This document shows positions 7,064 through 39,226 of a stretch of DNA of 45,391 bases, piece after piece (position 1 is the first letter of the stretch; each line of letters begins with the position of its first letter). The notes beneath the pieces were generated by a model that was not told where the DNA came from, did not search any database, and worked only from the letters and a program-made list of their open reading frames with translations. A program made the position numbers and the translations under genes. The DNA comes from a virus: the IMG/VR virus record IMGVR_UViG_3300010397_000021, positions 1 to 45,391 of that record. One strand, given 5' to 3'.

Positions 7064-7100
7064 GCTTTGCTCCTCTCCAAATGGGTACTGGTGTCCGTAA

Positions 7101-8189: not shown

Positions 8190-8473
8190 GCCGCTCGCCC
8201 CATTCTGTTGATGGCTTCGTAGATGAGCTTGTCTGCCGCCTTCTCGTCGCATTCGATCAGGCTACCCTCTTGGTCGATCTTTCCTTTCACGACCTTCGCA
8301 GCGACAAGTGCCGTGTAAATATCGTAATCCCAACCGCTATTACCGAACGGCCGTTTGCCAGAGAAGCCTTCTCCCTCTTGCCAAAGAGTTTTGAGCAACG
8401 CTCTGAAATAGTCACCGATAGTTTCGGCTTCGGCGTCATTAGCCTGCATGGGCGTATAAAGAATATCGGTCAT
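8186..8473 (-). CDS. Hypothetical protein, 95 aa
   Basis: Start moved to Met45 ([10 protein letters not shown]), giving an ATGA overlap with the upstream stop. Confidence 0.6.
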
Positions 8474-16166: not shown

Positions 16167-16403
16167 ATGCCAGGTGGAAGACCAAAAGGATCAACAAACG
16201 CAAAGAACATGGCGCTCAAAACCATGATCCTCAATTCACTTGAGAGGGTGGGCGGCGAAGAATACTTGATGCGACAGGCTGAAGAAAACCCATCGGCGTT
16301 TCTAACTATCCTTGGCAAGATTATCCCCTCTGAATTGAATGCCAAACTCTCTGGCGCTGTAAAGGTCAATGGAACTATCAACTTCGTACGACCGAGAGAT
16401 TAA
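16167..16403 (+). CDS. Terminase small subunit-like protein, 78 aa
   Basis: 'MPGGRPKGSTNAKN...' is a basic N-terminus. Lies directly upstream of, and overlapping, TerL. Confidence 0.45.
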   Translation: MPGGRPKGSTNAKNMALKTMILNSLERVGGEEYLMRQAEENPSAFLTILGKIIPSELNAKLSGAVKVNGTINFVRPRD

Positions 16404-17730
16404 CTTTCAGGTCGATATTCCTGAAGTGTTTCAGGACTTATTTGAGCCTAAGCGTTACAAAGTCTATTACGGTGGCCGCGGTGGCGCTAAATCCTGGGGA
16501 TTTGCTGATGCGCTGCTTATCATGGGTACTCAGCGCCCTTTGCGAATCTTATGCGCACGTGAGCTACAGAAATCAATAGCCGACTCTGTACATAAACTAT
16601 TATCCGACCAGATCATGAGTCTGGGCTTGGAAGAATTCTATGAAATCCAGAAGACCACCATCATTGGATTGAATGGCACGGAGTTCCTCTTCAACGGGCT
16701 TAAGCATAATGCCACGGAAATCAAGTCTACAGAGGGGATAGACATATGCTGGGTAGAGGAAGCCGAAAAAGTATCTGAAGCGTCCTGGGAGCTTTTAATA
16801 CCGACTATTCGCAAAGAGCATTCCGAGATATGGATTAGCTTTAATACCAAGCAGCCCAATGACGCGACCTATAAGCGCTTTGTTTTCGACGCGCCTGGCA
16901 ATTCAATTGTTAAGAAGGTATCCTATAAAGACAATCCATTCTTTCCCGATGTGCTTGAATATGAGCGATTGGAACTGCAGCGCAAAGACCCTAAAGCATA
17001 CGCGCATGTATGGGAGGGTGAATTCGATACGCGCTATTCTGGTGCGGTTTATGCGAAATGGATAGCCGATCTTAAGGATAAGGGACATATCAGGCCAGAT
17101 GTATTGCATGATCCAGCTTATCCAGTTTATACGCTGTGGGATTTAGGCTATTCAGATACCTGCGTGATCTGGTTTTACCAATCATCGGTCAGCGAAGTTC
17201 TATTTATTGATTACTATGAAAATAATGGCGAAGGCATTGGTCATTATTGTGATGTTCTGAAGGAGCGCAGCCAATACAATTACTATGCGCATTATGTTCC
17301 ACAGGACGCTGGCAAAAAGCTGATGGAGGCTAACGGGCGCTCAATTGTAGAGCAGGCATGGAAAGATCATGGAATACGCATGAGCGTGATTCCTGAGACA
17401 ACGCATGCTAACCGTATCGATGCACTACGTAAAACCTTGCCTGTCTGTTGGTTTAATTCTAATAGTTGCGCCCCAGGAATTGAAGCTGCGATGGCATATC
17501 ATTTTGAATATAATGAAGATTTACAGTCATTTAAAAAAGACCCCCATCATGATTGGTCATCACATGCATCCACTGCTTTAGAGTTGCTACCAAGTGTCTG
17601 GCGCGGTAGAATAAAGACGGTAGAAGAAATGCGGCGGGAAGCTATCGATAATAACTTTCACAGGCTGCGAAGAGAGAATAACCTGGTACAGGAAGACCCG
17701 TACCGTATTAAGCCGATGAGAAAGAAATGA
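16369..17730 (+). CDS. terL: Terminase large subunit (PBSX/Terminase_3-like), 453 aa
   Basis: Walker A 'YYGGRGGAKSWG', Walker B 'DICWVEEAE', C-terminal nuclease-like half. Confidence 0.9.
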   Translation: MELSTSYDREINFQVDIPEVFQDLFEPKRYKVYYGGRGGAKSWGFADALLIMGTQRPLRILCARELQKSIADSVHKLLSDQIMSLGLEEFYEIQKTTIIGLNGTEFLFNGLKHNATEIKSTEGIDICWVEEAEKVSEASWELLIPTIRKEHSEIWISFNTKQPNDATYKRFVFDAPGNSIVKKVSYKDNPFFPDVLEYERLELQRKDPKAYAHVWEGEFDTRYSGAVYAKWIADLKDKGHIRPDVLHDPAYPVYTLWDLGYSDTCVIWFYQSSVSEVLFIDYYENNGEGIGHYCDVLKERSQYNYYAHYVPQDAGKKLMEANGRSIVEQAWKDHGIRMSVIPETTHANRIDALRKTLPVCWFNSNSCAPGIEAAMAYHFEYNEDLQSFKKDPHHDWSSHASTALELLPSVWRGRIKTVEEMRREAIDNNFHRLRRENNLVQEDPYRIKPMRKK

Positions 17731-17864
17731 ACGCAATTTTTACATGTATCGGATCATTGTTTGCAGTAAGCATGGCGGTGATAGCCATTGCCGCGTGGCC
17801 AATAACATTAATGGGATTGTTGGCGTTGTGGGCAATAGTAGCATTACAGAGGGCCGTCAGATGA
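17727..17864 (+). CDS. Two-TM membrane peptide, 45 aa (below ORF-track cutoff)
   Basis: Hand translation: MNAIFTCIGSLFAVSMAVIAIAAWPITLMGLLALWAIVALQRAVR. ATGA overlaps with TerL and with the lipoprotein gene. Confidence 0.5.
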   Translation: MNAIFTCIGSLFAVSMAVIAIAAWPITLMGLLALWAIVALQRAVR

Positions 17865-18076
17865 AATCCTATATCGTTACGACTTTATTATTAGTATTAA
17901 CCGCTTGTGCTACACCCGAAACGATTCTTACTAAGGATGGCCAATACATATCATGCGGTGGTAGCTCAGTTGGCTCAGTGACTGGTGGTTATATCGGCTA
18001 TAGCCTTCAAAAAGATAATGATGATAAATGCGTCAAGGATCACGTTGCTATAGGATATAAACAAGTATCCCAATGA
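17861..18076 (+). CDS. Lipoprotein with glycine-zipper motif, 71 aa
   Basis: Start moved to MKSYIVTTLLLVLTAC (lipobox LTAC). 'GGSSVGSVTGGYIGY' is a glycine zipper. Confidence 0.6.
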   Translation: MKSYIVTTLLLVLTACATPETILTKDGQYISCGGSSVGSVTGGYIGYSLQKDNDDKCVKDHVAIGYKQVSQ

Positions 18077-18831
18077 AAGTAGCGGTATGGCGTACTGGGC
18101 ATGAGATAGCCGATACGGTAGCAAGCGCCATTCAAGAGGGATTGCCAGATATAGCAGCGCCAAATGTCGGCATTGGTTATGGCATTCTTCGTGGCATGAC
18201 TGCGGGATTTAAGCAATATCCGCACTGGTTCAATGTGGACCGAGGCTATTGGAAGCCCAGTCATTACAATGGTTATTATCGTATTAGCCTGCGTAGCACG
18301 CAACAGACCTTTGGCCTGGATAAGCTGAAACCAGACTATGACCGTTTGCGCGCGCTTGGCATCGAGCTTTATCCGTGGCGTGGGTTTGATGATAGTAAAT
18401 CGGTATTGGTATGCCCGCCTACGCACCATGTAAGTGAGTTCTTTGGTCTTGGCCAATTATGGAAATACCCTTCCACCAAATGTATATTGCGCAATAAGGG
18501 TGATGCATCTCCCATCAATTTTGATGATTATAACTATGTCTACACCTTTAACTCCTCCGTTGGATGGCAAGCACTCGCTGCTGGTATCCCCTGCATATCC
18601 GATCCTAAACATTCCATTATCGGCGCATGGTTTGGTAATTCGCTAACAGATAGTTTATCAAAAAAACAACATACTGAGCGCGAGCAGTTATTCGCAGTCA
18701 TGAGTGGATTGCAATTAACGCTAAAAGAAATGCGTGAAGGTAAGTTATGGCCGCTGATGAGCCAATTAATGTCTTTATCGGATGGGATTCAAGAGAATCC
18801 GTTGGATCATATGTCGCCGCTCACAGCATAA
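18073..18831 (+). CDS. Putative glycosyltransferase (GT-B / capsule-synthesis-like), 252 aa
   Basis: 'SVLVCPPTHH...' and 'YTFNSSVGWQALAAGIPCIS' resemble the C-terminal half of KpsS/KpsC-type or GT-B enzymes. Weak call. Confidence 0.35.
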   Translation: MKVAVWRTGHEIADTVASAIQEGLPDIAAPNVGIGYGILRGMTAGFKQYPHWFNVDRGYWKPSHYNGYYRISLRSTQQTFGLDKLKPDYDRLRALGIELYPWRGFDDSKSVLVCPPTHHVSEFFGLGQLWKYPSTKCILRNKGDASPINFDDYNYVYTFNSSVGWQALAAGIPCISDPKHSIIGAWFGNSLTDSLSKKQHTEREQLFAVMSGLQLTLKEMREGKLWPLMSQLMSLSDGIQENPLDHMSPLTA

Positions 18832-19556
18832 AGAAACGCACTCATCATCCTATTAATATTCGCTATCTTAAGCATCGCGAACTTCGTAAAGCCGGTCATT
18901 TCGCACGTCCATGGATTGTCAATGGCAGCGAAGGAGAGTGGACGGATTTAGTTGATGGCAAAACTTTCAGCACGGAATTCAGCCATACACGTTTTCTAGT
19001 GCCGCATCTTATGGGGTATAAGGGCTGGGCGCTATTTATGGATGCCGATATGATATTTTTATCGGATATACGCAAATTGTTTTCATTCTGTGATCCAAAA
19101 TACGCAGCAATGTGTGTAAAGCACGTTTACCCGCCCACCTCTGATAAAACGAAAATGGATGGCAGAACGCAGCGCTTTTATCATCGCAAGAACTGGTCAA
19201 GCTTTGTCCTGTGGAACTGTGCGCATCCAGCTAATATTGAAATAACACCAGAGAAGGTTAACTTTCTTTCAGGCCGTGATCTCCATAGTTTCTGCTGGCT
19301 CGATGATATGCAGATCGGCAATATTCCTTATACCTATAATTATATCTCCGGTATCAGTCCCAAAATGCCAGTCAATAGTTCTGGCCTTAACGCTGGAAAG
19401 CCCGATGTCATTCATTACAGTGATGGCGGTCCATGGTTTGAAGAATGCCAGGAAGTTCCATTCGCAGAGTTATGGAATCTTGAATACGAGGATTGGCAGC
19501 GAAGAGGTGAGGGGAATAAATACAGCGACGTGCCAACGACGAGGTTTGAGCTATGA
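18747..19556 (+). CDS. Glycosyltransferase family 8-like (GT-A, DxD), 269 aa
   Basis: 'FSHTRFLVPHLMGYKGWALFMDADMIFLSDIRKLF' (DxD) and 'DVIHYSDGGPWFEE' parallel LgtC-type GT8 motifs. Overlaps the previous ORF by 85 nt. Confidence 0.7.
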   Translation: MAADEPINVFIGWDSRESVGSYVAAHSIKKRTHHPINIRYLKHRELRKAGHFARPWIVNGSEGEWTDLVDGKTFSTEFSHTRFLVPHLMGYKGWALFMDADMIFLSDIRKLFSFCDPKYAAMCVKHVYPPTSDKTKMDGRTQRFYHRKNWSSFVLWNCAHPANIEITPEKVNFLSGRDLHSFCWLDDMQIGNIPYTYNYISGISPKMPVNSSGLNAGKPDVIHYSDGGPWFEECQEVPFAELWNLEYEDWQRRGEGNKYSDVPTTRFEL

Positions 19557-20215
19557 CCATTGCTCTTCTATGCCCAACACGCGCGCGGCCCAAGCAATGC
19601 AAACGCATGATTGAAAGCGCATACAATACCAGTAAGGATACAGTTAATATTTATCTCGGTTTTACAGATGAATCATATTGTGGTGGCGGATATCAACTGC
19701 CCGATTATCCCACCGCGCATAAATGGAATATGCTAGCAATTGAAGCGATGAAAGACCCGAGCAATAAGCTGTTTATGCTTGCTGCTGATGACATGATATT
19801 CACAACGCCATGCTGGGATCAAGCCCTGCTCGATCATTACAATGCATTGGATAATAAAGTTCACGTATATGCGCTGCAAGATAGCCGTGATCCCAATGGC
19901 ACACCACATCCGATAGTAACCCGGGAATATATCGAAGCACTGGGATGGTTTTTGCCACCGATTTTTATGCATTGGTATGTCGATAGCTGGACCGTGGAGA
20001 TTGCCAAAGCCAATAATTGCTTCACGCATATGAAGGATTATTTGCTGGTACACGATAAGCCCAGCGATAAAGGACAAGCTGATGAAACACATAATCGCAT
20101 ACGCGGTATGGGATGGCATGAACGGGATAAATATGTAGCAGAGAAATGCACAAATTACCTTGAGCAGCAGATATTACGATTATCGCTTGCGATGAAAATG
20201 CAGAGGGCTGCATGA
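19553..20215 (+). CDS. Glycosyltransferase, GT-A/GT2-like, 220 aa
   Basis: 'IALLCPTRARPKQCKRMIESA' (N-terminal beta-alpha), 'LFMLAADDMIFTTPCWD' (DxD-like), 'YVDSWTVEIA'. Confidence 0.5.
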   Translation: MTIALLCPTRARPKQCKRMIESAYNTSKDTVNIYLGFTDESYCGGGYQLPDYPTAHKWNMLAIEAMKDPSNKLFMLAADDMIFTTPCWDQALLDHYNALDNKVHVYALQDSRDPNGTPHPIVTREYIEALGWFLPPIFMHWYVDSWTVEIAKANNCFTHMKDYLLVHDKPSDKGQADETHNRIRGMGWHERDKYVAEKCTNYLEQQILRLSLAMKMQRAA

Positions 20216-20388
20216 ATAGCTTCCTGGAATGGTATGATAAGCCAAAAGATAACGCAAGGTTTTGCGGCGAGTATTATCATTGGGCATATACTGAAAAAGA
20301 TAAGTTTCGTTCTAAAGACTGGTTTTGTGATGCATGTATGAAGCGCATGGGTGCATGGAATCTATTGTTAGAAGGTAAGATTCAATGA
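20212..20388 (+). CDS. Small Cys-containing protein, 58 aa (below ORF-track cutoff)
   Basis: Hand translation: MNSFLEWYDKPKDNARFCGEYYHWAYTEKDKFRSKDWFCDACMKRMGAWNLLLEGKIQ. ATGA overlaps on both sides. Confidence 0.5.
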   Translation: MNSFLEWYDKPKDNARFCGEYYHWAYTEKDKFRSKDWFCDACMKRMGAWNLLLEGKIQ

Positions 20389-21395
20389 AAATCTGGATCA
20401 CTGGCATTGCAGGATTTCTTGGCTCACATTTAGCAGAGGCGCTGATTGCCGAAGGACACGAGGTAAGAGGAAATGATAACTTACTATGTGGTGATTATAA
20501 TAATATTACTAAAACAATTAGAGATATTACCCATTTCGCATGCCTGGAATATGATTGCTGCAATCAAACGGATATGTTTAATGCGCTGAAACTATACAAC
20601 TCAGATGTCTTAATACATTGCGCTGCCACTGCTCACGAAGGTCTAAGCTCCTTCAGCCCATCCTTTATCACGCGTAACATTTATGAAGCTAGCGTTGCTA
20701 CATTCAGCGCAGCGATTGCTGCTGGCGTGAAGCGCATCATCTATATGAGCAGTATGTCGCGTTATGGCGAACAATCTTTACCATTCACTGAGGGTATGCG
20801 GCCTAAGCCCGTTGATCCGTATGGCATAGCTAAAGTCGCTGCCGAAGATACGCTTAAAGTTCTCTGCAAAACCCATGGTGTAAAATATGCCATCGCCGTT
20901 CCACATAATATTATCGGTATACGCCAGCGCAGTTGCGATCCTTATCGTAATGTTGCAGCTATTATGATTAATCGCTGTAAGCAGGGTAAGCCGCCAATCA
21001 TCTATGGCGACGGATCACAGAAGCGCTGCTTTAGTCCTATTGCAGATGTGATTCCATCATTATTGCGCATGGTGCATGGCGATGCGGATGGCGAGGTAGT
21101 GAATATCGGTCCAGATTTAGGCGAGATTACAATAAAAGAATTGGCTGACAAGATATGTAAGCTAACTAACTACACCAATGATCCGCTTTATATGCCTGGG
21201 CGCCCTAATGAAGTACATGATGCCTATTGCTCCAGTGATAAGGCTCGGAGAATACTGGGTTATGAACCGAAGCAATCCATCGACGAATGCTTAAAGCAGA
21301 TGGTGGATTACATTCAGCCAATGCCATTCGTATATGATTTTCCGATAGAGATCGAGCGCGGATGTCCTGAAACCTGGGCAAAGAGGATTATGTGA
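20385..21395 (+). CDS. NAD-dependent NDP-sugar epimerase/dehydratase (extended SDR), 336 aa
   Basis: Rossmann 'ITGIAGFLGSHL', catalytic 'SSMSRYG' and 'PYGIAKVAAE' (YxxxK). Confidence 0.85.
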   Translation: MKIWITGIAGFLGSHLAEALIAEGHEVRGNDNLLCGDYNNITKTIRDITHFACLEYDCCNQTDMFNALKLYNSDVLIHCAATAHEGLSSFSPSFITRNIYEASVATFSAAIAAGVKRIIYMSSMSRYGEQSLPFTEGMRPKPVDPYGIAKVAAEDTLKVLCKTHGVKYAIAVPHNIIGIRQRSCDPYRNVAAIMINRCKQGKPPIIYGDGSQKRCFSPIADVIPSLLRMVHGDADGEVVNIGPDLGEITIKELADKICKLTNYTNDPLYMPGRPNEVHDAYCSSDKARRILGYEPKQSIDECLKQMVDYIQPMPFVYDFPIEIERGCPETWAKRIM

Positions 21396-21808
21396 GCATT
21401 GTAGCAATCTCTGGCGGATTTGATCCGCTTCATCACGGTCATATTAGTCTTATTGAAGAGGCAGCAGAGCATGGCAAAGTCGTAGTCATTCTAAACAGCG
21501 ATGTGTGGCTTAAACGCAAAAAAGGCTTTGTCTTTATGCCATATGATAACCGTGCCCGTATTCTGCTTGCATTGCGCGATGTCTATAACGTAATTCCTGC
21601 CGATGATTATGATGATACGGTTTGTAATACACTTAAACAATTAAAGCCGGATTGCTTTGCCAATGGCGGGGATCGTACCGCACAGAACACGCCGGAGCTT
21701 AAGCTATGCAATGATTTGCGTATTAAGCCGCTTTTCAATGTCGGCGGGTCTAAAGTAGAAAGCAGTAGTGATTTAGTGAATGCAGCGGTGCAGTATCATG
21801 ATTGGTAA
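21392..21808 (+). CDS. HIGH-motif nucleotidyltransferase (cytidylyl/adenylyltransferase family; RfaE domain II / TagD-like), 138 aa
   Basis: 'ISGGFDPLHHGHISLIEEA', 'VVILNSD', 'ANGGD' match the nucleotidyltransferase superfamily. Confidence 0.75.
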   Translation: MSIVAISGGFDPLHHGHISLIEEAAEHGKVVVILNSDVWLKRKKGFVFMPYDNRARILLALRDVYNVIPADDYDDTVCNTLKQLKPDCFANGGDRTAQNTPELKLCNDLRIKPLFNVGGSKVESSSDLVNAAVQYHDW

Positions 21809-22085
21809 GCGCTTCGTACGCAGACAATGGGGCTGGTATCTGACGCTGCTAGATCGCGCGCATTTTAAGGTAAAGCTATTATGCTTTAAGCGCGATGGAC
21901 GATTATCAAACCAATATCATCGTCTTCGTAGCGAGCTATGGCTTTTCCTCTCAGGAGAACAATCTGGCGCATGGCGCAGAATAAATGAGGATGAGCTGCA
22001 TACATACCATGCCATCAGACCAACGTTAGTACTCGAAATACAATATGGCGATAAATGCGATGAGAAGGATATAGTGCGTGTCTAA
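21798..22085 (+). CDS. Cupin, mannose-6-phosphate isomerase type II-like, 95 aa
   Basis: 'RRQWGWYLTLLDRAHFKVKLLCFKRDGRLSNQYHRLRSELWLFLSG' parallels the RPWG.Y...KVK...LS.Q.H..R.E.W motif. Start set at MIGKRF. Confidence 0.65.
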   Translation: MIGKRFVRRQWGWYLTLLDRAHFKVKLLCFKRDGRLSNQYHRLRSELWLFLSGEQSGAWRRINEDELHTYHAIRPTLVLEIQYGDKCDEKDIVRV

Positions 22086-22626
22086 ATCTTTCGATGAGCT
22101 CTGGCGCTTTATCAATACGCGCAGTTCTGTCATTACCGTTCAAGAGCGTAGCGAACTTAACTATGTTTATGACTTGATGCGCGGTGCTGCATCCTACCTA
22201 GAAGTGGGAACGGCAGAGGGTAATTCTCTCTATGTGTTATCACACGCCATCAAGCCCGGTGGCGTTATTAGCTATATCGATTATGGCGAGAAGCATACGG
22301 CATTGCCGCGCAACGAAATCATAGCGCTTTTGCACAATGAGGGAATTGAGGTGGCTGGTTATTTGGGCAACAGCCATGATCCAAAGACTTATAGCGCGAC
22401 AATGCCCTACGATGTGGTGCTAATTGACGCTGGTCATTCTTATGAGGATGTCATTGCTGATGCAATTGCCTATGGGCGGTTTGCCACCAAATATCTCATT
22501 TTCCATGATATATGCCTACCAGAAGTAGAACGAGCGTTTGAATGGTATTGCAAGCAGCGCTCCCTCAATAAGGCCTATAAATTTATTAACAGCGATACAT
22601 TTGGATATGGGATTTTGAAGCTATGA
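22078..22626 (+). CDS. Class I SAM-dependent methyltransferase (Methyltransf_24 / sugar O-MTase-like), 182 aa
   Basis: 'YLEVGTAEGNSLYVL' (motif I), 'YDVVLIDAGHSYEDV', 'LIFHDI'. GTG start. Confidence 0.7.
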   Translation: MSKSFDELWRFINTRSSVITVQERSELNYVYDLMRGAASYLEVGTAEGNSLYVLSHAIKPGGVISYIDYGEKHTALPRNEIIALLHNEGIEVAGYLGNSHDPKTYSATMPYDVVLIDAGHSYEDVIADAIAYGRFATKYLIFHDICLPEVERAFEWYCKQRSLNKAYKFINSDTFGYGILKL

Positions 22627-24350
22627 ATAATTCAATTGCAGTTATTACCACTTTTCCAAATGCGTCGTGGGAAATCTATAGCAAGAAAATGCTACAATCA
22701 TTCACACGGTTCTGGCCCGCTGAAATACCATTATTGCTTGAGCTTGATGATGATCTTTTAGTATCGGATGTACAAAAAATACTGCGCCAGCAGGATGCTG
22801 TAGCTGTGGGATGGGATAAGGAGCATCAGGAATTTGTTGAACGCAATAAAGGCAAGGATGATCCTAATGATTATCGTAAGCAGCCTGTACGATTCTGTCA
22901 TAAAATATTTGCCATAAAGCGAGCTTTAAAGGCGATCGAATCCGCTAAAGCCAATAATGAAAATCCAGCACGCTATCTTATCTGGATGGACGCAGATGTA
23001 GTAACCAATCGCTCTGTAACTATCGATGAGATCAAAGAATGCTTGCCCAAAGAGGGTGAGGCAGTTGCTTATATGGGGCGTAAGGATTGGGATCATAGTG
23101 AATGCGGGTGGATGGCATTTGATCTGGAAAATGGCGGCGCGGGTATCATTGAAATGATGATATCCGGCTATATCACTGATGAAATACTTGGTTATGAGCA
23201 GTTACACGATTCCTGGGTATTCGACATGGTATGCGGCATTACTAAAGTTAAATGCACTAATCTTACCTATGGAAAGCCCGGTATGGATATTTGGCCTCAT
23301 AGTCCCATGGGAAAATGGTCTACGCATTATAAAGGCCCTGTAGCAAAATCAGCATTGGAGGAGCCGACGCGAGTTAATCAGGGAAATTATGGACAACAGG
23401 TTATTATCCAAACTCGTAATGCTATTCCAAACGAAAAAATATGTCAGCATATTGAGCGTAACCAGCAATTGATTTCTGAATGGATACGTCCTTGCAAAGA
23501 AAATACGGAAAAACTTATCGTTGTTTCTGCTGGCCCTACATTAATTGCCGAGGATTTACTTAAGGAATATGAAGAAGGCTACAAAATCATCGCCGTAAAA
23601 CATGCGCTCATTCCTCTTAAAGAGGCTGGCATTAAGCCATGGGCATGTATTTTACTCGATCCACGTCCGCATGTGGCTGATTTTGTCAAAAATGCCGATC
23701 CAGATATATTATGGTTTGTTGCAACTCAAGTTGATCCGGCTGTTACATTAGAGCTGCTAGCGCGGGGCTGTCGCATTATTGGCTATCATGCTTCGGTAAA
23801 TGCCAATGAAGAAACGCTCACTTCAAAACAGGCCTATTCCATCATCAGCGGCGGGAGCGCCACGGCTACGCGCGGTCTTTATATGTTAAATCATTTAGGT
23901 TTTAAGCGGTTTAAGCTCTATGGCTACGATCTTTGCCTTCCCGACAAGCCTGATTTGAATGCGCGCGATGACCAAGGACAGCCAAAATATCTGGAATTCT
24001 CAGTAGGAATGAATGATCCGCTATATAACGTCAAGCGCTGTTTCTGGGCAGAACCTCAACTTATAGCGCAGTTTGAAGAAATTAGCGACATTATTAAACG
24101 CAACGTATTTGAAATCGAGGCCATAGGCTACGGCGCCGTTCCTTTTATTATTAATGCTCAGAGGGTGGCCAATTTGCGCAGGAGCAAAATACGCAGTAAA
24201 ATGATCGGTGATATTTTGCCGTCTTATCATGAGGTAATTAAATGCAGCCGCCAATGGAACAGTCACAGAAAGACCAGCTTCTTAACCAAATGGCTGGGCA
24301 GATTGCCGCTGATCCACCACAAACCGACGCTGGCCATGAAATCCTTGTAG
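22623..24350 (+). CDS. Two-domain putative glycosyltransferase: N-terminal GT-A-like (DxD) fused to a DUF115/MptE-like (motility accessory factor, Maf-type) domain, 575 aa
   Basis: N-terminal 'IAVITTFPN...' and 'YLIWMDADVV'. C-terminal 'LIVVSAGPTLIAEDL...KIIAVKHALIPLKEAGIKPWACILLDPRP...SGGSATATRGLYMLNHLGFKRFKLYGYDLC' resembles DUF115 of flagellin nonulosonic-acid transferases. Confidence 0.55.
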   Translation: MNNSIAVITTFPNASWEIYSKKMLQSFTRFWPAEIPLLLELDDDLLVSDVQKILRQQDAVAVGWDKEHQEFVERNKGKDDPNDYRKQPVRFCHKIFAIKRALKAIESAKANNENPARYLIWMDADVVTNRSVTIDEIKECLPKEGEAVAYMGRKDWDHSECGWMAFDLENGGAGIIEMMISGYITDEILGYEQLHDSWVFDMVCGITKVKCTNLTYGKPGMDIWPHSPMGKWSTHYKGPVAKSALEEPTRVNQGNYGQQVIIQTRNAIPNEKICQHIERNQQLISEWIRPCKENTEKLIVVSAGPTLIAEDLLKEYEEGYKIIAVKHALIPLKEAGIKPWACILLDPRPHVADFVKNADPDILWFVATQVDPAVTLELLARGCRIIGYHASVNANEETLTSKQAYSIISGGSATATRGLYMLNHLGFKRFKLYGYDLCLPDKPDLNARDDQGQPKYLEFSVGMNDPLYNVKRCFWAEPQLIAQFEEISDIIKRNVFEIEAIGYGAVPFIINAQRVANLRRSKIRSKMIGDILPSYHEVIKCSRQWNSHRKTSFLTKWLGRLPLIHHKPTLAMKSL

Positions 24351-26458
24351 GTCTTGGCCAAGCAGAGCTTGCTGGGCGCATTAAGAATTCCTCAGAGACG
24401 TATAATCTAGCGCAAGACATGGATGATGCCATGCTGCGTGAAATAGGGCAAGAATGTTATAACGGCTTTAAGGATGATGCCGATAGCCGCGCCGATTGGC
24501 TAGATATGCATACGTTCTGGCTCTCTCTATACATGCAGACTGATTATACGGAAAACTCTGATCCTGATCGATCATGGGGGGCTACGGAGAGTGTGCCACT
24601 GATGACAGAATCATGCGATCAATTCCAGGCCCGTACTTATAAAGCCTTTTTCCCGCAAGATACGTTTGTTTCTGCCATCCCTATGCGTAAGAATGTTCAA
24701 GACCGCCAGGAGCTTGAGCAGCGAGCGGAGCGTATCGGTGATCATATGAGTTATCAGTTGGGTTATCAGGATCGTAACTATAAGCGCGATAAAGATGCTC
24801 TATTTCTTGGGGTGGCCCTACATGGGAGTTTCTTCACGAAAACATATTTCAGCGAGAAACTTAAACGTTTTAAGGTTGATAACGTCCGCCCAACGGATTT
24901 AGTTATTAATTATAATGTAGGACCAATCCATATTGAGGACGTGCGCCGCAAGTCACATATCATTAATACGACGATAGGGGCTACTGAGCAATCGGTTACT
25001 AACGGATTCCTTATATCTCCTGCAATCTCCTGTATGCAGGAGGGTGAGAATATCTACAACGTTAAAGTCGATCAATCCCAGGGTATAACAGAACCAAATC
25101 ATGCATTAAAAATAGATCGTCCGGCTGTTTTAATTGAACAGCATGTTTATTTGGATTTGGATGATTCAGGTAATTATCGCCCCTATATCGTAACGTTCGA
25201 TCTGGCTAATAAATCTGTTAAGCGTGTAACGCTTGGATATGAAGCCGATCCACAAGGCAATCCTTATAAAGATTATGAACAGATTCAATATTTTACACAT
25301 TATAAATTCAAGGAAAATCCAGATGGTTTCTATGGGTTTGGGCTTGGGCATTCCATCGGTGATTTAAATAGCGCCATTAACATCATGCTGCGTCAGAGTA
25401 TGGATGCAGCAACGCTTGCTAATGATGGCAATATGAGCGGATTTATCAGTGAGCGCATGAGTATCGTCGGCGATGAAGTGCGTATGACATTGGGTAAGCT
25501 TACCAAGATTTCCGATACTATAGGCGATCTGAACGACAACATCATGATGATGAAGTTTCCGGGCCCGAATGCCGCATTGATTCAGATCATGGAAGCCATG
25601 GATGAGCGCGCGCAACGCATGGCGTCTACCACCGAAGCGACGACCGGCTCAATGGATAAAGTTATACAGCCTACCACTTACTTGACGCAGGTGGAGCAGG
25701 CATTGGAATCGTTTTCTGCCGTTCAGATGCGCTTGGCAAACGCTTTGAGCGATGAATTACAGAAAATCTATCGTATCAATCAGCGGTTTTTGCCTTTGAT
25801 CGATTATTATGTTGTTAATGGTGCGCCGGAAATGATTACGCGCATGGATTATTCCGATGATATGTTGGTTCAGCCTATTTTCGATCCCAAATTTGCCACG
25901 CAATCGCAGAAAGTGGCTCGTGTACAAGCAGAAGCGCAGATTGTTATGGCCAATCCCATGACACAAAGCCGCCCGCAGGTAATGGATGCTATATGCAGAA
26001 GGCAATTAGAGGCATTGGATATCGATAATATTGATGAATTAGTGCCACCAGTACCTCAGCCACTCAATATTGATGACCAGATGCAAGAAAACATGATGTT
26101 CATGATGCCGCCTGGACAATCGCCGCCTTTCGACGTTTTTCCTGATCAACATCATGCCATTCATTTAGCGCAGTTAGAGCAGTTTGTTAAAGAAAAAGGT
26201 GGTACGCTCATGCCAGAGCAAGCGCAAACTGTCATTATGCATAAACAGAAACATGAGGCATTCCTTTATGGCCAGCAACACGGACTTATCCCGCCTCCCC
26301 AAGCCAAGCCCGGCGGAGCTTCACCATTGGGCGCAGGACAGGGTGACCAGATGGATCATGGCCCAACTGCACTCCAAGTTCCCGAGCCGCCGCTTGGCGG
26401 TCCCTCCCAAATCACTGGAGCAGGCGTATATGGAGGCGGGGCAGCAGCAGGTGCTTGA
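24242..26458 (+). CDS. Portal protein, 738 aa
   Basis: Size and position (first morphogenesis gene before scaffold and capsid). Acidic, Gly-rich C-terminus. Overlaps the previous ORF by 109 nt. Confidence 0.7.
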   Translation: MQPPMEQSQKDQLLNQMAGQIAADPPQTDAGHEILVGLGQAELAGRIKNSSETYNLAQDMDDAMLREIGQECYNGFKDDADSRADWLDMHTFWLSLYMQTDYTENSDPDRSWGATESVPLMTESCDQFQARTYKAFFPQDTFVSAIPMRKNVQDRQELEQRAERIGDHMSYQLGYQDRNYKRDKDALFLGVALHGSFFTKTYFSEKLKRFKVDNVRPTDLVINYNVGPIHIEDVRRKSHIINTTIGATEQSVTNGFLISPAISCMQEGENIYNVKVDQSQGITEPNHALKIDRPAVLIEQHVYLDLDDSGNYRPYIVTFDLANKSVKRVTLGYEADPQGNPYKDYEQIQYFTHYKFKENPDGFYGFGLGHSIGDLNSAINIMLRQSMDAATLANDGNMSGFISERMSIVGDEVRMTLGKLTKISDTIGDLNDNIMMMKFPGPNAALIQIMEAMDERAQRMASTTEATTGSMDKVIQPTTYLTQVEQALESFSAVQMRLANALSDELQKIYRINQRFLPLIDYYVVNGAPEMITRMDYSDDMLVQPIFDPKFATQSQKVARVQAEAQIVMANPMTQSRPQVMDAICRRQLEALDIDNIDELVPPVPQPLNIDDQMQENMMFMMPPGQSPPFDVFPDQHHAIHLAQLEQFVKEKGGTLMPEQAQTVIMHKQKHEAFLYGQQHGLIPPPQAKPGGASPLGAGQGDQMDHGPTALQVPEPPLGGPSQITGAGVYGGGAAAGA

Positions 26459-27655: not shown

Positions 27656-27994
27656 ATGCAATACGAGCCGAAGTTTGGACGAGTATTAATCAAGCGCGAA
27701 GTACAAGAGAAAACAACCGGCGGCATTATTCTGCCAGATACGATAGCGAAAAGACACGCTTCCTGCGTTGGAAAGATTATCGCCCTTGGCGAAACCGCTG
27801 GGTTTACAGAAACCTATGATGACCAGGGTGAGCGCATCGTTATCCGCACTATGAAAGTAGATGATAATGTCATTTTCGGCCGTCATTCCGGCGCATGGCT
27901 CGATGCCACCTATTCTCCTAAAGGCGAAGCGCAAGACGATGGAACGTTATTCATCTGTCAGGATCAAGATATTTTAGCAGTAATTAAGGAGTAA
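27656..27994 (+). CDS. groES: Co-chaperonin GroES homologue, 112 aa
   Basis: 'KFGRVLIKREVQEKTTGGIILPDTIAK...GKIIALGE...VDDNVIFGRHSG...ICQDQDILAVIKE' aligns along the whole length of E. coli GroES (mobile loop 'TTGGIILP'). Confidence 0.85.
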   Translation: MQYEPKFGRVLIKREVQEKTTGGIILPDTIAKRHASCVGKIIALGETAGFTETYDDQGERIVIRTMKVDDNVIFGRHSGAWLDATYSPKGEAQDDGTLFICQDQDILAVIKE

Positions 27995-30062: not shown

Positions 30063-30980
30063 ATGGTAATGAATACTGGTGCATTTTCAGAAGACCTTTG
30101 GCCCGGCATTTTGTCTTGGTTCGGTGATTCTTATCAGGATTACGAGCCCATTTGGGAGCGCTTGGTAGATAAGCATCAATCGGACAAACAGTTCGAGAAA
30201 TTTCAGGGCATCACCAATTATGGCCTTGCTGGTATTAAAGATCAGGGCGCGGGTATCCCGTATCGTGATAAGTTCCAGGGTTTCCCTCGTGAAATTATCA
30301 ACGTTACCTATGGTATCGGCTCAACCATTACCTATGAGATGATGCGCTATGACCAGTATGATAAGTTTCGCGCAATTCCGCAGCAGCTTGCTCAGGCTGT
30401 ACGGCGCACTGAAGAAACTGTTGTTGCTAGCCTTCTCAACAATGGCTTCTCTACTGCGACGAATCCGACGCTGACGGCGGACGGCAAAAGCCTGTTCAAT
30501 TCTGCACATCTTCTGGTGGCATCTAATAACGTTACCCAGAAGAACACGCCGTCCACGGCTTCCGATCTCATGCAGACTTCGCTGGAGCAGGCCTATATCG
30601 ACATCAGCGCCTTCGTCGATGACCAGAACCTGCCGATTGTGGTAACGCCGAAATTGCTGGTGGTTTCCAAAGAGCAGCAGCATTTGGCGCGCAAGATTCT
30701 GGAAACGGAATATGAGGTCGATAGCGGCAATAACACGATCAACCCGGTTTCTAGCTCCAATAAGCCGATTGATTGGCTGTGGAGTCCGTGGCTGACCGAC
30801 GCCGATGCATGGTTCATCAAAACTGACGAAGCCGATGGCTTGGTCTTTACCGATGTCGATGAGGTGATGCTGGATCGGGATAATGATTTCGATACCAAAA
30901 ACCTGAAGTTTAGCGCCATGCGCCTCTTTGGTACGGGTGCGGTCAATTATCTTGGTTATTACGGTTCACCGGGGGCATAA
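30063..30980 (+). CDS. Major capsid protein (HK97-fold, putative), 305 aa
   Basis: Size, position after the scaffold, and an N-terminal pattern typical of ~300-aa phage major heads. Confidence 0.7.
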   Translation: MVMNTGAFSEDLWPGILSWFGDSYQDYEPIWERLVDKHQSDKQFEKFQGITNYGLAGIKDQGAGIPYRDKFQGFPREIINVTYGIGSTITYEMMRYDQYDKFRAIPQQLAQAVRRTEETVVASLLNNGFSTATNPTLTADGKSLFNSAHLLVASNNVTQKNTPSTASDLMQTSLEQAYIDISAFVDDQNLPIVVTPKLLVVSKEQQHLARKILETEYEVDSGNNTINPVSSSNKPIDWLWSPWLTDADAWFIKTDEADGLVFTDVDEVMLDRDNDFDTKNLKFSAMRLFGTGAVNYLGYYGSPGA

Positions 30981-30983: not shown

Positions 30984-31472
30984 ATGACGCGTTATTCCGA
31001 TAATATCTATAGCGGCTTTCAGGCTACGACTTCGGCAACTTCCAGTAAAAGCCCAGTCGTGCTTCGTAAGACGTATAATTTTGCCGGTGCTGGCAATACC
31101 ACCTCTGTTACGCAGAGCGGCGTATTTCCGCCTGGTACGCAGAATCTTACCGCGCGTATCTTTATCACGAACGCAGCATCGGCTACGGTTAGTGATAAAA
31201 TTACCGTCTCTGCCGGTGGGACGACTCTTCTGACCATCGATCAGTTTGGATCAGCTGCCGGTATCGCCGGGGATACGAAAGCATCGGTCGCTCGATTTAC
31301 CTATGTTGCATCTGCCTGTGCGCAGCCGCCGATCCCGTCTGGCGCTAATAACGGTGGTGAAATTCCTTTCTCTGTGACCTTCACCCCTGTCTCGGCAGAT
31401 AAAGTCGGCACTTATCAAGTAGAGATGTCTTTCAATCGCGCCGATACCAACACACTAGGGGTAACCGCTTAA
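30984..31472 (+). CDS. Ser/Thr/Ala-rich virion protein, 162 aa
   Basis: 'ATTSATSSKSP', 'AGAGNTTSVTQSG'. Immediately after the capsid gene. Confidence 0.55.
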   Translation: MTRYSDNIYSGFQATTSATSSKSPVVLRKTYNFAGAGNTTSVTQSGVFPPGTQNLTARIFITNAASATVSDKITVSAGGTTLLTIDQFGSAAGIAGDTKASVARFTYVASACAQPPIPSGANNGGEIPFSVTFTPVSADKVGTYQVEMSFNRADTNTLGVTA

Positions 31473-31488: not shown

Positions 31489-31854
31489 ATGCGCGCTAAA
31501 TCTTTCACCGTAATTGCATCGGCTGGCGGCACAACTTATAGTCCGGCTTTCCCTATCGATACCTATAACAATCCGACCGATATCGGAATTGGGGTGCAGC
31601 TTATCTATGGCGCAGGATCAGCCATTTATGATGTCCAGCATACCTTTAGTAATCCTTGGCAGATTAATCTGAATGCCAATCCTACGGCCAATACATCGGC
31701 TACAGGCATTTGGGAAAATAATTCTGTTCTTACCTCCGCTACTACGACGGGTGACACTAACTATGCATTCCCTCCACGCGCCATACGCTTTGCTTTAAGA
31801 GCAGCAGCTTCAGCAAGAATTACTGGCATTATCCAGCAGGCTGGGCCGGAGTAA
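31489..31854 (+). CDS. Virion protein, 121 aa
   Basis: Same-strand ORF in the structural block. Confidence 0.55.
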   Translation: MRAKSFTVIASAGGTTYSPAFPIDTYNNPTDIGIGVQLIYGAGSAIYDVQHTFSNPWQINLNANPTANTSATGIWENNSVLTSATTTGDTNYAFPPRAIRFALRAAASARITGIIQQAGPE

Positions 31855-34944: not shown

Positions 34945-35292
34945 ATGGCGCGCAGAAATGGTCGTTTAGGCGCATGGCTTGCCACTGATGATTATACTGG
35001 CATCACTCGGTATGCATCCGAGCTGCGACGTGATTTCTGGGGAAGTGTCAGCAAATATCCTTTGCAGCGCAACCTTCAGGAAATTGCATCACCTTTAAGC
35101 GATCCGCAACCTGTTAGTCTTTACCGTGGACCCAATTATGAACAAACGCCGGTATGTGTATCAGAGACTGCACCGCTCTATGTAGGAAATACGACCGTAC
35201 GCACTAATCCTAATAACGCTGCTTTTCAGGCGCTCGATTTAGCTCCGGCTATTCCCGATATGGAAATTGGCTGCACATTCCAGGTATATTGA
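34945..35292 (+). CDS. Virion-module protein, 115 aa
   Basis: Same-strand ORF. Confidence 0.55.
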   Translation: MARRNGRLGAWLATDDYTGITRYASELRRDFWGSVSKYPLQRNLQEIASPLSDPQPVSLYRGPNYEQTPVCVSETAPLYVGNTTVRTNPNNAAFQALDLAPAIPDMEIGCTFQVY

Positions 35293-39225: not shown

Positions 39226-39226
39226 T

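Follow-up and report, generated by a model that had tools for sequence, protein, structure and literature searches.

The gene immediately upstream of the portal gene in this phage is predicted to encode two independently folding catalytic domains in one polypeptide, a GT-A glycosyltransferase domain followed by a Maf-type core of the PF01973 family (Table 1). With a probability of about 0.45, the product is read here as a soluble bifunctional glycosyltransferase within a cytoplasmic glycan assembly line of the phage, using a CMP-activated ulosonic acid as donor and most probably acting on a virion component. Its two additions, most likely made late in infection, would be a sugar of the hexose type and an ulosonic acid activated by CMP, for which host CMP-Kdo is a possible source. 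To our knowledge, Maf-type enzymes have so far been known only as flagellin-specific transferases of sialic-acid-like sugars. Coordinates throughout refer to the window, that is, the whole 45,391-nucleotide stretch of viral DNA that was analysed.

Table 1. Coordinates of the fusion gene, its predicted domains and residues, and the surrounding island genes.
Feature	Position	Strand	Description
Target ORF (GT-A/Maf-core fusion)	22623..24350	+	575 aa, ATG start; GT-A domain, linker, Maf-core domain, basic tail
N-terminal GT-A glycosyltransferase domain, residues 1-246 (predicted)	22623..23360	+	Foldseek GT6/GT8; no Pfam family
DxD motif D123-A-D125 (in WMDADV)	22989..22997	+	Invariant in A1 (n=42) and A2 (n=57)
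H235 (H-Y-K-G-P), candidate third metal ligand	23325..23327	+	Invariant in A1 and A2
Inter-domain linker, residues 247-269	23361..23429	+	Disordered, length variable; pLDDT <50 at 248-258
PF01973 (DUF115/Maf_flag10/MptE-like) domain and β/α extension, residues 270-530	23430..24212	+	Pfam, Foldseek, profile hmmsearch
S302-A-G-P-T306 nucleotide-binding loop (GxGPS of Maf)	23526..23540	+	Aligns with G279-S-G-P-S283 of 5MU5
D346 (LLDPR), Maf E324 equivalent	23658..23660	+	Aligned to residue 324 (E) of 5mu5_A
D436 (YGYDL), Maf D415 equivalent	23928..23930	+	Aligned to D415 of 5mu5_A
Basic C-terminal tail and stop codon	24213..24350	+	Poorly conserved, low-confidence; overprinted on portal 5′ end
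Large terminase, island left boundary	16369..17730	+	TIGR01547 E 6.4e-47
u252, co-conserved partner, putative retaining-Kdo-transferase-like fold	18073..18831	+	AF2 pLDDT 88.8
u269, co-conserved GT8-like GT-A glycosyltransferase (FMDADM, HYSDGGPW)	18747..19556	+	Glyco_transf_8 E 7.8e-5; phrog_28018 E 3e-54
220-aa glycosyltransferase	19553..20215	+	phrog_14945 'glycosyltransferase' E 3.6e-19; variable member, some relatives only
SDR epimerase/dehydratase	20385-21395	+	Pfam/NCBIfam; variable island member
HldE-domain-II/TagD-like nucleotidyltransferase	21392-21808	+	Pfam/NCBIfam; variable island member
Cupin	21780-22085	+	Pfam/NCBIfam; variable island member
Methyltransf_24 SAM-methyltransferase	22078..22626	+	Pfam E 2.6e-7; 4-nt overlap with target
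Portal protein, island right boundary	24242..26458	+	phrog_1216 E 1.8e-16; directly 3′ of target

Domain architecture of the fusion protein

An earlier note on this DNA had placed a GT-A domain with a DxD motif in the N-terminal half of the protein and a DUF115/Maf domain in the C-terminal half, and both assignments were borne out by the searches described below. The strings that it quoted (YLIWMDADVV, LIVVSAGPTL, IIAVKHALIPLKEAGIKPWACILLDPRP and GGSATATRGLYMLNHLGFKRFKLYGYDLC) all lie within the 575-residue translation. At E ≤ 1e-3, 478 full-length homologues were recovered, with lengths of 537–592 residues among the matches listed. The AlphaFold2 (AF2) model has a mean pLDDT of 87.6, rising above 90 in both domains, and its Foldseek matches to GT6 and GT8 enzymes and to Maf 5MU5 all carry a probability of 1.0. 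In an alignment of 42 close homologues (A1), the linker columns are gappy and unconserved, as is the C-terminal tail, where pLDDT falls below 50 for residues 541–575. Close relatives possess the basic tail and distant family members do not. The overlap of 36 codons with the portal gene reported earlier stands for the longest portal reading frame, which begins at 24242 and shares 109 nt with the target, whereas the public gene call starts the portal at 24290 and leaves about 20 codons. An overlap of 88–97 nt is kept in close relatives, and distant relatives have 8–26 nt or none.

The N-terminal domain is predicted to adopt a single Rossmann-like α/β/α fold with the strand order of GT-A enzymes (pLDDT above 90; target-normalised TM-scores moderate, at 0.45–0.48). 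Hundreds of GT-A structures in the PDB and BFVD match at probability 1.0, the best being retaining enzymes of GT6 and GT8, namely bovine α-1,3-GalT and the ABO transferases (GT6; TM-scores as above, E of about 1e-8) and the LARGE1 xylosyltransferase domain and pneumococcal GlyE (GT8). Common to these enzymes and the target are a DxD motif that ends the central strand, here lying directly after the predicted β-strand of residues 118–122, and a conserved downstream His. D123, D125, R153 and H235 are invariant across 57 distant stand-alone homologues of the domain (A2), and K237 and G238 are nearly invariant in both alignments. By analogy with GT-A enzymes that employ DxD plus His, H235 is a candidate for the third metal ligand. 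Unlike GT6 and GT8 proteins, the domain has no detectable sequence-profile membership in any Pfam GT family: a Pfam scan returned no family match, a profile search against the PDB was empty, and no place was found for it in curated Pfam or CAZy families (GT6, GT8, GT2 and others). Some homologues weakly match Glycos_transf_2, Anp1, Mannosyl_trans3 or GT8, and hhalign against the neighbouring GT8-like gene u269 gave a probability of 13.7% with both DxD motifs aligned. The domain constitutes its own large family of about 240 residues, mainly from phages and metagenomes, and is also found alone in proteins of about 230–280 residues, with 887 representatives matching. Taken together, the modelled fold and the conserved residues identify it as a predicted metal-dependent GT-A domain, retaining and GT6/GT8-like, with DxD plus His.

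The C-terminal domain matches PF01973 over residues 283–441 (E 5.6e-20; 72 bits against a gathering cut-off of 34.6), and NCBIfam FlagModPseD covers the same stretch at a domain-level E of 3.5e-8, with 32.5 bits against a cut-off of 670 for the PseD model. In the model-based Foldseek search, which the earlier note had recommended, Maf 5MU5 ranked third (E 5.5e-9), and hmmsearch with a profile of diverse C-domain homologues recovered 5mu5_A at E 3.9e-6, with 29.5 bits over the whole core. Acidic residues have been found essential by mutagenesis in Mafs, namely E324 and D415 in Magnetospirillum magneticum (equivalents of D272/D357 in CbMaf), with D272 of CbMaf and D285 of GkMaf likewise essential (bioRxiv 10.1101/2020.06.03.131540). 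Among 20 diverse C-domains, D346 is invariant and G304 of the nucleotide-binding loop nearly so. D436 is also nearly invariant in diverse C-domains and is replaced by Asn in a few homologues, as at N379 of GkMaf. Mafs additionally conserve a Ser in the catalytic site (CbMaf S334, GkMaf S356); in the target, S412 occupies a GG[S/T] motif, with Ser or Thr after an invariant Gly, and is separated from D436 by 24 residues, vs 23 in CbMaf, its alignment with 5MU5 being ambiguous by one or two positions. Downstream of the core, the AF2 model contains just a β/α extension of about 90 residues and the disordered tail. Judged from its sequence, the domain is a Maf/Cst-II-type catalytic core in which the GxGPS loop and both Maf-essential acids are retained.

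The island between terminase and portal

The target belongs to an island that is inserted between the terminase and portal genes and is common to hundreds of uncultured phages of about 45 kb. In each of the 32 loci that were recovered with the target as query and extend as far as the following gene, that gene is the portal, down to about 30% identity. Portal synteny holds in 33 of 35 related loci (L030 ends just after the target, and L034 and L035 have no more than a stand-alone homologue of the N-domain). Of 12 assessable phages with portals of at least 36% identity, 10 have the target, against none of 64 with portals of at most 32% identity, and TerL abuts the portal in several phages that have no island. 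Clade member L047 lacks the island, and in L057 the region upstream of the portal shows no gene for the enzyme; therefore, the island is not essential for particle assembly. Overlaps of at least 4 nt join the island reading frames, which are also tightly spaced or overlapping with the late genes, and no promoter or terminator signal above chance was detected in the island.

Triple fusions of GT-A, Methyltransf_24 and MptE-like modules exist among the homologues, with the same three modules in differing orders, and at L031 an apparently separate GT-A gene precedes a longer reading frame with the Maf core (from ORF layout and tblastn only). Because the modules occur both fused and as separate adjacent genes, the Methyltransf_24 gene can be regarded, on sequence grounds, as a functionally linked partner of the target. 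Two further genes, u252 and u269, accompany the target even in loci at 25–30% identity. u269 is present in most related loci, with D99, D101 and H223 invariant. For u252, the top 22 PDB matches in Foldseek are all WbbB, KpsC or KrkA, with probability up to 1.0, TMq of 0.22–0.43 and rmsd of 8–14 Å, u252 being about 100 residues shorter. Retaining β-Kdo transferases (GT99/GT107/GT140) carry a QXXXD nucleophile motif and a (K/R)XHP CMP-binding motif (PMC12887879). The u252 sequence contains no QxxxD and no HP dipeptide, and neither appears among its invariant residues. The SDR, nucleotidyltransferase and cupin genes are gained and lost among relatives. The complete 45.3 kb genome and the island genes examined in relatives yielded no NeuB/PseI, no pseudaminic, legionaminic or sialic acid synthase and no CMP-sugar synthetase. 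Likewise, Pfam and NCBIfam profile scans of the phage genes found no membrane GT, lipid-carrier priming enzyme, flippase, ligase or export gene.

The phage is a temperate podophage, with integrases in its genome, and a SASA-type carbohydrate esterase in its tail module suggests that its receptor is an acetylated surface polysaccharide. In Pelagibacter phage Mosig, a stand-alone GT-A homologue resides in a glyco-cluster amid nucleotide-metabolism genes, not structural genes; this phage was counted among the evidence for functional linkage of the GT-A, Methyltransf_24 and MptE-like modules. The major capsid protein has no island-specific Ser/Thr-rich extension. Small Ser/Thr-rich proteins encoded after the capsid gene are missing in the one island-less lineage within the clade and present in island-less outgroups, and this mixed distribution therefore pinpoints no acceptor.

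Proposed pathway and alternative readings

In the proposed pathway, the GT-A domain would transfer a hexose- or heptose-type sugar from an NDP-sugar, which may be partly made or tailored by the island nucleotidyltransferase, SDR and cupin. The Maf-type domain would transfer an acidic ulosonic acid from a CMP-sugar. CMP-Kdo of the Gram-negative host would be the most economical donor, since the phage has no nonulosonic-acid pathway and characterised Mafs accept CMP-Kdo as well as CMP-Neu5Ac; the use of CMP-Kdo by the only structural relatives of u252 was also counted for this donor. The Methyltransf_24 enzyme may cap or decorate the glycan product. The island would be expressed late, and the acceptor would be a virion component built late, giving a glycan-coated particle.

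This scheme is weakest with regard to the acceptor. Virion proteins are the leading candidate, and the circumstantial case for them consists of the late-operon position and the lack of a lipid-carrier or export gene. Since the acceptor-binding modules of Mafs are absent from the target, homology says nothing on the acceptor. The earlier reading of the architecture as a sign of glycosylation on protein instead of on lipid-linked glycans was not sustained, given that the flagellin-recognition modules are missing, there is no nonulosonic-acid pathway, and a neighbour most resembles retaining Kdo transferases. The wider proposal, that a large uncultured clade of temperate podophages of Gram-negative bacteria with genomes of about 45 kb coats its virions with an acidic methylated glycan, made in the cytoplasm through a portal-linked GT-A/Maf-core island and host CMP-Kdo or a different CMP-ulosonic acid, is doubtful.

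It is possible, if somewhat doubtful, that the same chemistry serves a host lipid-linked glycan (LPS core, O-antigen, capsule or poly-Kdo linker) at the cytoplasmic face of the inner membrane. An extra hexose/ulosonic-acid/methyl cap would be added and then exported by host machinery, the benefit being superinfection exclusion or progeny that do not stick to debris. Known retaining Kdo transferases act on lipid-linked glycans, and O-antigens that depend on ABC transporters are known to be terminated by methyl and Kdo caps (PMC9587256). The only structural relatives of u252 cap or build lipid-linked glycans with Kdo, and this, together with the temperate nature of the phage, was counted against a virion acceptor; classical serotype-converting phages are temperate. 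The esterase in the tail module and the position of the Mosig homologue outside structural genes also agree with a host acceptor, as does the basic C-terminal tail of close relatives, which could give peripheral membrane binding but is not a feature of the distant family members. Conversion genes, however, usually adjoin an integrase or att site, whereas the island lies in the middle of the late morphogenesis operon, shows no above-chance promoter or terminator signal of its own, and keeps its adjacency to the portal over very deep divergence. In addition, u252 is without the catalytic motifs of its structural relatives.

It is improbable that the fusion acts as a polymerase, comparable to LARGE1 or the hexosyl/sialyl-transferase capsule polymerases, that adds two sugars in alternation and makes an acidic heteropolymer of repeating units in place of a short glycan. 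Two different GT domains in one chain parallel the W/Y capsule polymerases of Neisseria, which are bifunctional hexosyl/sialyl-transferases, and the top Foldseek match for the whole chain is LARGE1, itself a polymerase with two GT domains. However, this match has a TM-score of 0.26 and an rmsd of about 21 Å and, in the model, involves the GT-A parts alone. The two domains are also found apart or with an intervening methyltransferase, an arrangement more easily reconciled with a pathway than with a polymerase bound to alternate, and three to four more GT-like island genes suggest stepwise assembly.

A role other than glycosyl transfer for the C-terminal domain, in which an MptE-type ATP-dependent pyrophosphokinase or some other nucleotide-dependent enzyme would activate a sugar or small molecule on behalf of the GT-A domain, is very unlikely; the earlier note had itself named a pterin kinase as the competing identity. 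PF01973 includes the archaeal 6-hydroxymethyl-7,8-dihydropterin pyrophosphokinase MptE, and the C-domain profile matches its structure 8SD5 at E 0.0064, but with 19 bits and over profile positions 5–82, the nucleotide-binding half, alone, vs the 29.5 bits over the whole core for 5MU5. MptE has no match to the second half of the target domain, in which the Maf catalytic Asp lies, and both Maf catalytic acids are conserved in the target. The window contains no folate genes, and the fusion partner and neighbours are all glycan enzymes. Membership of the domain in the MptE pterin pyrophosphokinases was rejected on this half-length match and the lack of pterin or folate gene context.

Glycosylation of phage DNA (base hypermodification) before packaging would explain the location between terminase and portal and is hardly credible: we know of no Maf or GT6/GT8-type enzyme that acts on DNA, and the window yielded no DNA methyltransferase, TET/JBP domain or 5-hydroxymethyl-pyrimidine pathway. 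There are phage GTs known to hypermodify DNA (bioRxiv 10.1101/2023.12.21.572611), and some relatives have a methyltransferase/2OG-oxygenase fusion directly upstream of the target, but the oxygenase match is weak (E 0.004) and of prolyl-hydroxylase type.

A Maf core without flagellin-binding modules, fused to a GT and placed beside the portal in hundreds of environmental phages, points to a catalytic module recruited for another job. If the acceptor is a virion component, the system would open phage-particle glycosylation to tractable study in Gram-negative systems, bear on how particles evade immunity and grazers, on their stability and on host range, and offer a compact soluble two-step tool for glyco-engineering, because Mafs already accept both CMP-Neu5Ac and CMP-Kdo. 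With a glycosylated virion coat, Maf-type 'sialylation-like' O-glycosylation of proteins would also be known for the first time beyond flagella, and no earlier virion glycosylation system would have been described in phages of Gram-negative hosts. If host LPS or capsule is the acceptor, the island would be a new kind of late-expressed surface-remodelling module. Either acceptor would assign a function class to widespread 'hypothetical' or 'MptE-like' phage proteins and to the uncurated GT-A family.

Comparison with known glycosylation systems

The target shares the central PF01973/Maf_flag10 core with the Maf O-glycosyltransferases of M. magneticum (5MU5), Clostridium botulinum, Geobacillus and Campylobacter (PseD/PseE/Maf4). 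Like them, it is predicted from the model to be soluble and cytoplasmic, with a CMP-activated ulosonic acid as its probable donor. True Mafs recognise their acceptor, flagellin, through accessory domains at the N and C termini, through a TPR domain or through a GlfM partner. The target lacks the N-terminal Rossmann-like domain and the C-terminal helical/TPR flagellin-binding domain of Maf and has the GT-A domain instead; no TPR domain was found in the target homologues scanned with Pfam, and the Pfam and PHROG matches of its neighbour genes are all sugar-modifying enzymes, with no GlfM among them. Unlike Maf genes, the target is phage-encoded, adjoins a portal gene and is not located beside flagellin or Pse/Leg/Neu genes.

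Glycan-coated virions have a precedent in mycobacteriophage virion glycosylation, and chlorovirus PBCV-1 encodes A064R, a capsid-glycan enzyme with two rhamnosyltransferase domains plus a methyltransferase domain. Systems of the A064R type resemble the island in combining virus-encoded GT and GT (and methyltransferase) modules that are cytoplasmic and use no lipid carriers. The PBCV-1 and mycobacteriophage systems differ in their unrelated domains and hosts, the target having one Maf/sialyltransferase-type domain and the capsid protein of its phage no special extension. The W/Y polymerases of Neisseria meningitidis and the WbbB-type O-antigen terminators likewise bring a neutral-sugar transferase together with a CMP-ulosonic-acid transferase in one polypeptide or locus. 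The methyl or Kdo capping logic of the WbbB-type terminators may apply to the island, in which the predicted fold of u252 may be WbbB/KpsC-like. However, these bacterial enzymes use other GT folds (GT4/GT97 and GT99/GT107, respectively) and act on lipid-linked polymers.

A two-domain enzyme overlapping the portal gene

The fusion, in which an N-terminal GT-A domain and a C-terminal Maf-core domain are joined by a linker, lies exactly where the earlier note had placed it, as a plus-strand ORF of 575 aa, and all of the peptide strings quoted there occur in its translation. An AlphaFold2 model built with 42 homologues has a mean pLDDT of 87.6, with values above 90 throughout both domains; only the linker (residues 248-258) and the final ~35 residues are modelled with low confidence. 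Overlap with the portal gene amounts to the 36 codons claimed earlier if the longest portal ORF is taken, and to 20 codons with a public gene call. The overlap measures 88-97 nt in close relatives and 8-26 nt in distant ones, and the overlapped C-terminal tail of the fusion is basic, unconserved, and disordered.

In the C-terminal half, residues 283-441 match PF01973 (MptE-like, formerly DUF115/Maf_flag10) with an E-value of 5.6e-20 and a score of 72 bits, the gathering threshold being 34.6. The NCBIfam flagellin-modification PseD model gives a domain-level match over the same stretch (E 3.5e-8); orthology to PseD was rejected, as the score is far under the PseD whole-protein cut-off. In a Foldseek search of the PDB, the Maf glycosyltransferase of Magnetospirillum magneticum (5MU5) ranks third (E 5.5e-9). 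Because PDB sequence searches with the single sequence or a close-homologue profile gave no match, a diverse profile was built from 20 divergent C-terminal domains (19-46% identical) drawn from an exhaustive search. This profile matches 5mu5_A over positions 29-186 (E 3.9e-6), and matches the archaeal pterin pyrophosphokinase MptE (8SD5) only over positions 5-82 (E 0.0064), confined to the nucleotide-binding half of the domain. In the 5mu5_A alignment, Maf G279-S-G-P-S283 corresponds to S302-A-G-P-T306 of the fusion, E324 to D346 of an LLDPR motif, and D415 to D436 of YGYDL. Both E324 and D415 are critical in M. magneticum Maf, and the equivalent residues D272/D357 in Clostridium botulinum and D285/N379 in Geobacillus are also required (bioRxiv 10.1101/2020.06.03.131540). 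Among the 20 divergent domains D346 is invariant and D436 nearly so, with Asn at the latter position in a few homologues, paralleling GkMaf N379. The DUF115/Maf similarity proposed in the earlier note was thus recovered by profile as well as by AlphaFold2 with Foldseek, and neither outcome that it had named as counter-evidence, a lack of such similarity or a pterin-kinase-type enzyme, was found. From these profile and fold matches and the aligned D346 and D436, the C-terminal domain is judged Maf-like and not pterin-kinase-like.

The N-terminal half matches no Pfam, PHROG, or NCBIfam family. Its Foldseek matches in the PDB are mostly retaining GT6 enzymes, namely bovine alpha-1,3-galactosyltransferase and the ABO transferases (target-normalised TM 0.45-0.48, E ~1e-8), and the GT8 enzymes LARGE1 and GlyE; neighbours in a viral structure library carry GT8, GT6, GT34, and GT2 annotations. 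Residues 1-270 by themselves retrieved 887 cluster representatives in an exhaustive HMMER search, and many of these are stand-alone proteins of 230-280 aa, so that the N-domain forms an autonomous domain family. A few members give weak Pfam matches to Glycos_transf_2, Anp1 (GT62), Mannosyl_trans3, or GT8. The DxD motif noted earlier is borne out, since D123-A-D125 directly follows the predicted central strand (118-122), the usual position in GT-A folds. Across 57 distant stand-alone proteins (25-40% identity), D123, D125, R153, and H235 are the sole invariant residues. When the family was aligned by hhalign with that of the GT8-like neighbour u269, the DxD motifs coincided at a non-significant probability of 13.7%. 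The N-domain is therefore modelled as a GT-A domain of an uncurated family, probably of a retaining clade. Strong purifying selection acts on both active sites of the fusion, a soluble two-domain enzyme: the DxD/His site of its GT-A domain and the Maf-type site of its C-terminal domain.

The glycan-assembly island

Between the large terminase and the portal, nine genes lie in tight or overlapping frames.

Features of the island and of other regions of the phage genome
Coordinates	Strand	Feature	Evidence
138-659	+	Tyrosine-integrase-like ORF, 173 aa
1215-2282	-	Tyrosine-integrase-like ORF
7863-8252	-	129-aa ORF with PCRF-domain fragment	E 6.4e-12
16369-17730		Large terminase
17744-18076		Small lipoprotein-like gene	YgdI/YgdR family, E 6.8e-6
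18073-18831		u252, unknown family
18747-19556		u269, GT8-like, FMDADM and HYSDGGPW motifs	Pfam GT8, E 7.8e-5
19553-20215		220-aa glycosyltransferase
20385-21395		SDR epimerase/dehydratase	Pfam/NCBIfam
21392-21808		HldE-domain-II/TagD-like nucleotidyltransferase	Pfam/NCBIfam
21780-22085		Cupin	Pfam/NCBIfam
22078-22626		Methyltransf_24 methyltransferase	Pfam/NCBIfam
22623-24350	+	Fusion (GT-A and Maf core)
24242-26458		Portal
27656-27994		GroES/Cpn10-like co-chaperonin	Pfam, E 1.9e-11
30984-31472		Ser/Thr-rich protein
31489-31854		Ser/Thr-rich protein
31861-34491		Ser/Thr-rich structural protein, 876 aa	Two Laminin_G_3/ConA-like lectin domains
42317-43594		Tail-module protein, 425 aa	SASA domain, E 3.4e-19

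The fusion is tied to its neighbours by gene fusions and splits, by the co-occurrence of u269 and u252, and by the fold of u252. Elsewhere, single proteins of 725-807 aa join GT-A, Methyltransf_24, and Maf-core domains as triple fusions. In the related locus L031 the GT-A domain has a gene to itself; the longer ORF after it encodes the Maf core and, from its length and position, probably the methyltransferase too. Pelagibacter phage Mosig has a stand-alone GT-A homologue adjoining two methyltransferases. In the set of 35 viral loci retrieved by searching with the fusion, u269 and u252 are found beside it even where identity falls to 25-30%, and the SDR, nucleotidyltransferase, cupin, Methyltransf_24, and 220-aa glycosyltransferase genes vary in presence. 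Their replacements in other relatives include GDP-mannose 4,6-dehydratase, FkbM and other methyltransferases, radical-SAM/SPASM and GT17 enzymes, and an FAD oxidoreductase; the island is a hot spot that swaps sugar-tailoring genes around a fixed core. The genetic unit joins the fusion to a methyltransferase, to the GT8-like u269 as at least one more glycosyltransferase, and to a Kdo-transferase-like protein, to which the 220-aa enzyme adds a third glycosyltransferase in this genome.

That Kdo-transferase-like protein is u252. Its structure model (pLDDT 88.8) has retaining beta-Kdo transferases, the CMP-Kdo users WbbB, KpsC, and KrkA, as all of its 22 best PDB fold matches, at low TM (0.22-0.43 on the query) and with u252 about 100 aa shorter. 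The QXXXD and HP motifs are signatures of this enzyme class (PMC12887879). Neither motif was found in the u252 sequence, for which reason it was not accepted as a genuine Kdo transferase and the fold was kept as a lead. From the model, u252 could be an ulosonic-acid transferase in reduced or divergent form, or an accessory protein that binds a CMP-sugar.

Several individual loci show further variation. An HNH endonuclease is inserted just before the fusion in L008 (3894-4415). L014 encodes the radical-SAM/SPASM enzyme (2153-3109) and GT17 transferase (5720-6472), L052 the GDP-mannose 4,6-dehydratase (1355-2332), and L030 a methyltransferase/2OG-oxygenase-like fusion (6284-7666). In Mosig, a cultured pelagiphage (MT647606, 7665-13499), the GT-A homologue is annotated as hypothetical, and its cluster of two methyltransferases, two glycosyltransferases, and a sulfotransferase lies beside ribonucleotide reductase genes, not structural genes. 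The lipoprotein-like gene wedged between the terminase and the island has an internal Met followed by the lipobox LTAC and a counterpart in 0 of the 35 related loci. The gene has the look of a recent moron acquisition and suggests a Gram-negative host.

A search of 90%-identity clusters gave 478 relatives of the fusion at E<=1e-3; the lengths of the best 120 all fall within 537-592 aa, and many are on contigs of 41-48 kb. The fusion is immediately upstream of the portal in all 32 loci (of the 35) that reach the next gene. In a portal-based survey independent of the fusion, which took in 80 of ~570 portal relatives, the fusion was present in 10 of 12 loci with portals at least 36% identical and enough upstream sequence (the exceptions being L047 and L057), versus 0 of 64 with portals at most 32% identical, several of which have the terminase directly adjoining the portal. 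By this split the island is a clade-specific insertion at the terminase-portal junction, old, stably kept, and dispensable. In the island-less L047 the large terminase abuts the portal; this 827-aa protein (1477-3960, on the same contig as L123) has an ATPase-region insertion that looks, by eye, to be of the intein/homing-endonuclease type.

The island is placed within the late operon, with promoter and terminator signal of its own not above chance. A scan of 13.5-27 kb gave 27 promoter-like sites, the expected number being 32; on the plus strand no island gene ends in a terminator-like site, those found lying within coding sequence. The scan thus gives no sign of an autonomous 'moron' cassette, nor does it prove co-transcription.

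Phage genome and host

Bases 1-123 are identical to 45269-45391, an exact terminal direct repeat of 123 nt. The window thus holds an entire genome of about 45,268 bp, either closed into a circle or terminally redundant, and gene absences therefore hold for the whole phage. The left arm encodes integrases, a Rad52 recombinase, and an HTH regulator, and the late arm the large terminase, portal, GroES-like protein, major capsid protein, SU10-type adaptor, SASA-family carbohydrate esterase, lysozyme, and a three-TM holin; by this gene set the phage is a temperate podovirus. The capsid gene spans 30063-30980, and fibre/tail proteins are encoded within 36611-43594. The portal is 24-30% identical to those of cultured phages of Pelagibacter, Roseobacter, Caulobacter, Alcaligenes, and cyanobacteria. 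A tRNA search of the window found no tRNA gene. No match to the fusion was found in 185,579 species genomes scanned for host-naming prophages, nor to the island in a near-identity DNA search of 50,697 phage records; the only match among phage records was the stand-alone N-domain of Mosig, at 27% identity.

The two integrase-like ORFs lie near each other, and the first is a catalytic-domain piece only, which may be truncated or run across the circular junction. Residues 59-85 of the 129-aa ORF match the end of the PCRF (peptide-chain-release-factor) domain, odd for a phage early region. The GroES/Cpn10-like gene sits in the head module between portal and scaffold/capsid and is kept in most relatives, island-less ones included. 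The SASA (sialate O-acetylesterase-type carbohydrate esterase) domain of the tail protein suggests an O-acetylated surface polysaccharide as a possible receptor.

Proposed function and comparison with known systems

The fusion is probably (about 0.8) a glycosyltransferase with two activities that serves a phage glycan-assembly line. The GT-A domain would add a neutral sugar from an NDP-sugar, which the nucleotidyltransferase, SDR, and cupin could supply or tailor, for example as a heptose or deoxy-hexose, and the Maf-type domain would transfer an ulosonic acid from a CMP-sugar donor. Besides their native donors, Mafs that have been characterised also use CMP-Kdo and CMP-Neu5Ac. Since Mafs take CMP-Kdo and the phage makes no such sugar, CMP-Kdo of the Gram-negative host would be the most economical donor, to which the structural kinship of u252 to CMP-Kdo enzymes also points.

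The full statement, in which this enzyme would act on a virion protein, is more tentative, at slightly under even odds. The complete genome was found to encode no membrane-embedded glycosyltransferase, lipid-carrier priming enzyme, flippase, ligase, or nonulosonic-acid pathway. A virion acceptor is favoured by this soluble, carrier-free enzyme set, the late-operon position, and the fixed portal adjacency, and precedents are mycobacteriophage virion glycosylation and chlorovirus A064R. Two failed searches for an acceptor signature count against it. The major capsid proteins are collinear, with no island-specific extension or insertion. The three Ser/Thr-rich proteins encoded after the capsid gene are absent from L123/L124, the sole island-less lineage in the clade, where a homologue of 34945-35292 directly follows the capsid gene; as acceptors tracking the island they are not discriminating, since similar small Ser/Thr-rich proteins occur in the island-less outgroups L038 and L043. 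The N-terminus of the largest, the lectin-domain protein, is a run of GGLTP-like Ser/Thr-rich repeats.

In the main alternative, the island would remodel a lipid-linked glycan of the host on the inner side of the membrane. The activities of u252's structural relatives, the temperate lifestyle, and the tail-borne carbohydrate esterase all speak for a host-glycan acceptor, which is judged less likely than a virion acceptor. Little weight is given to DNA hypermodification by the island, or to a pterin-kinase C-terminal domain, whose MptE match covers the nucleotide-binding half whereas the Maf alignment takes in D346 and D436.

The fusion is verified in its architecture and widespread, and its proposed function is interesting. 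Public databases already contain this architecture, in uncharacterised proteins that are labelled 'MptE-like' or 'methyltransferase domain' and come from uncultured Caudovirales, and a full-text literature search for DUF115/MptE-like/Maf in phages returned no paper describing such a phage enzyme. Relative to Maf, acceptor-recognition modules were tested for and are absent from the fusion, as is the flagellin/nonulosonic-acid gene context around it; the fusion is therefore not a Maf family member in the functional sense. Its likenesses lie in the active sites, the C-terminal one resembling that of Maf and the N-terminal one those of GT6/GT8-type enzymes.
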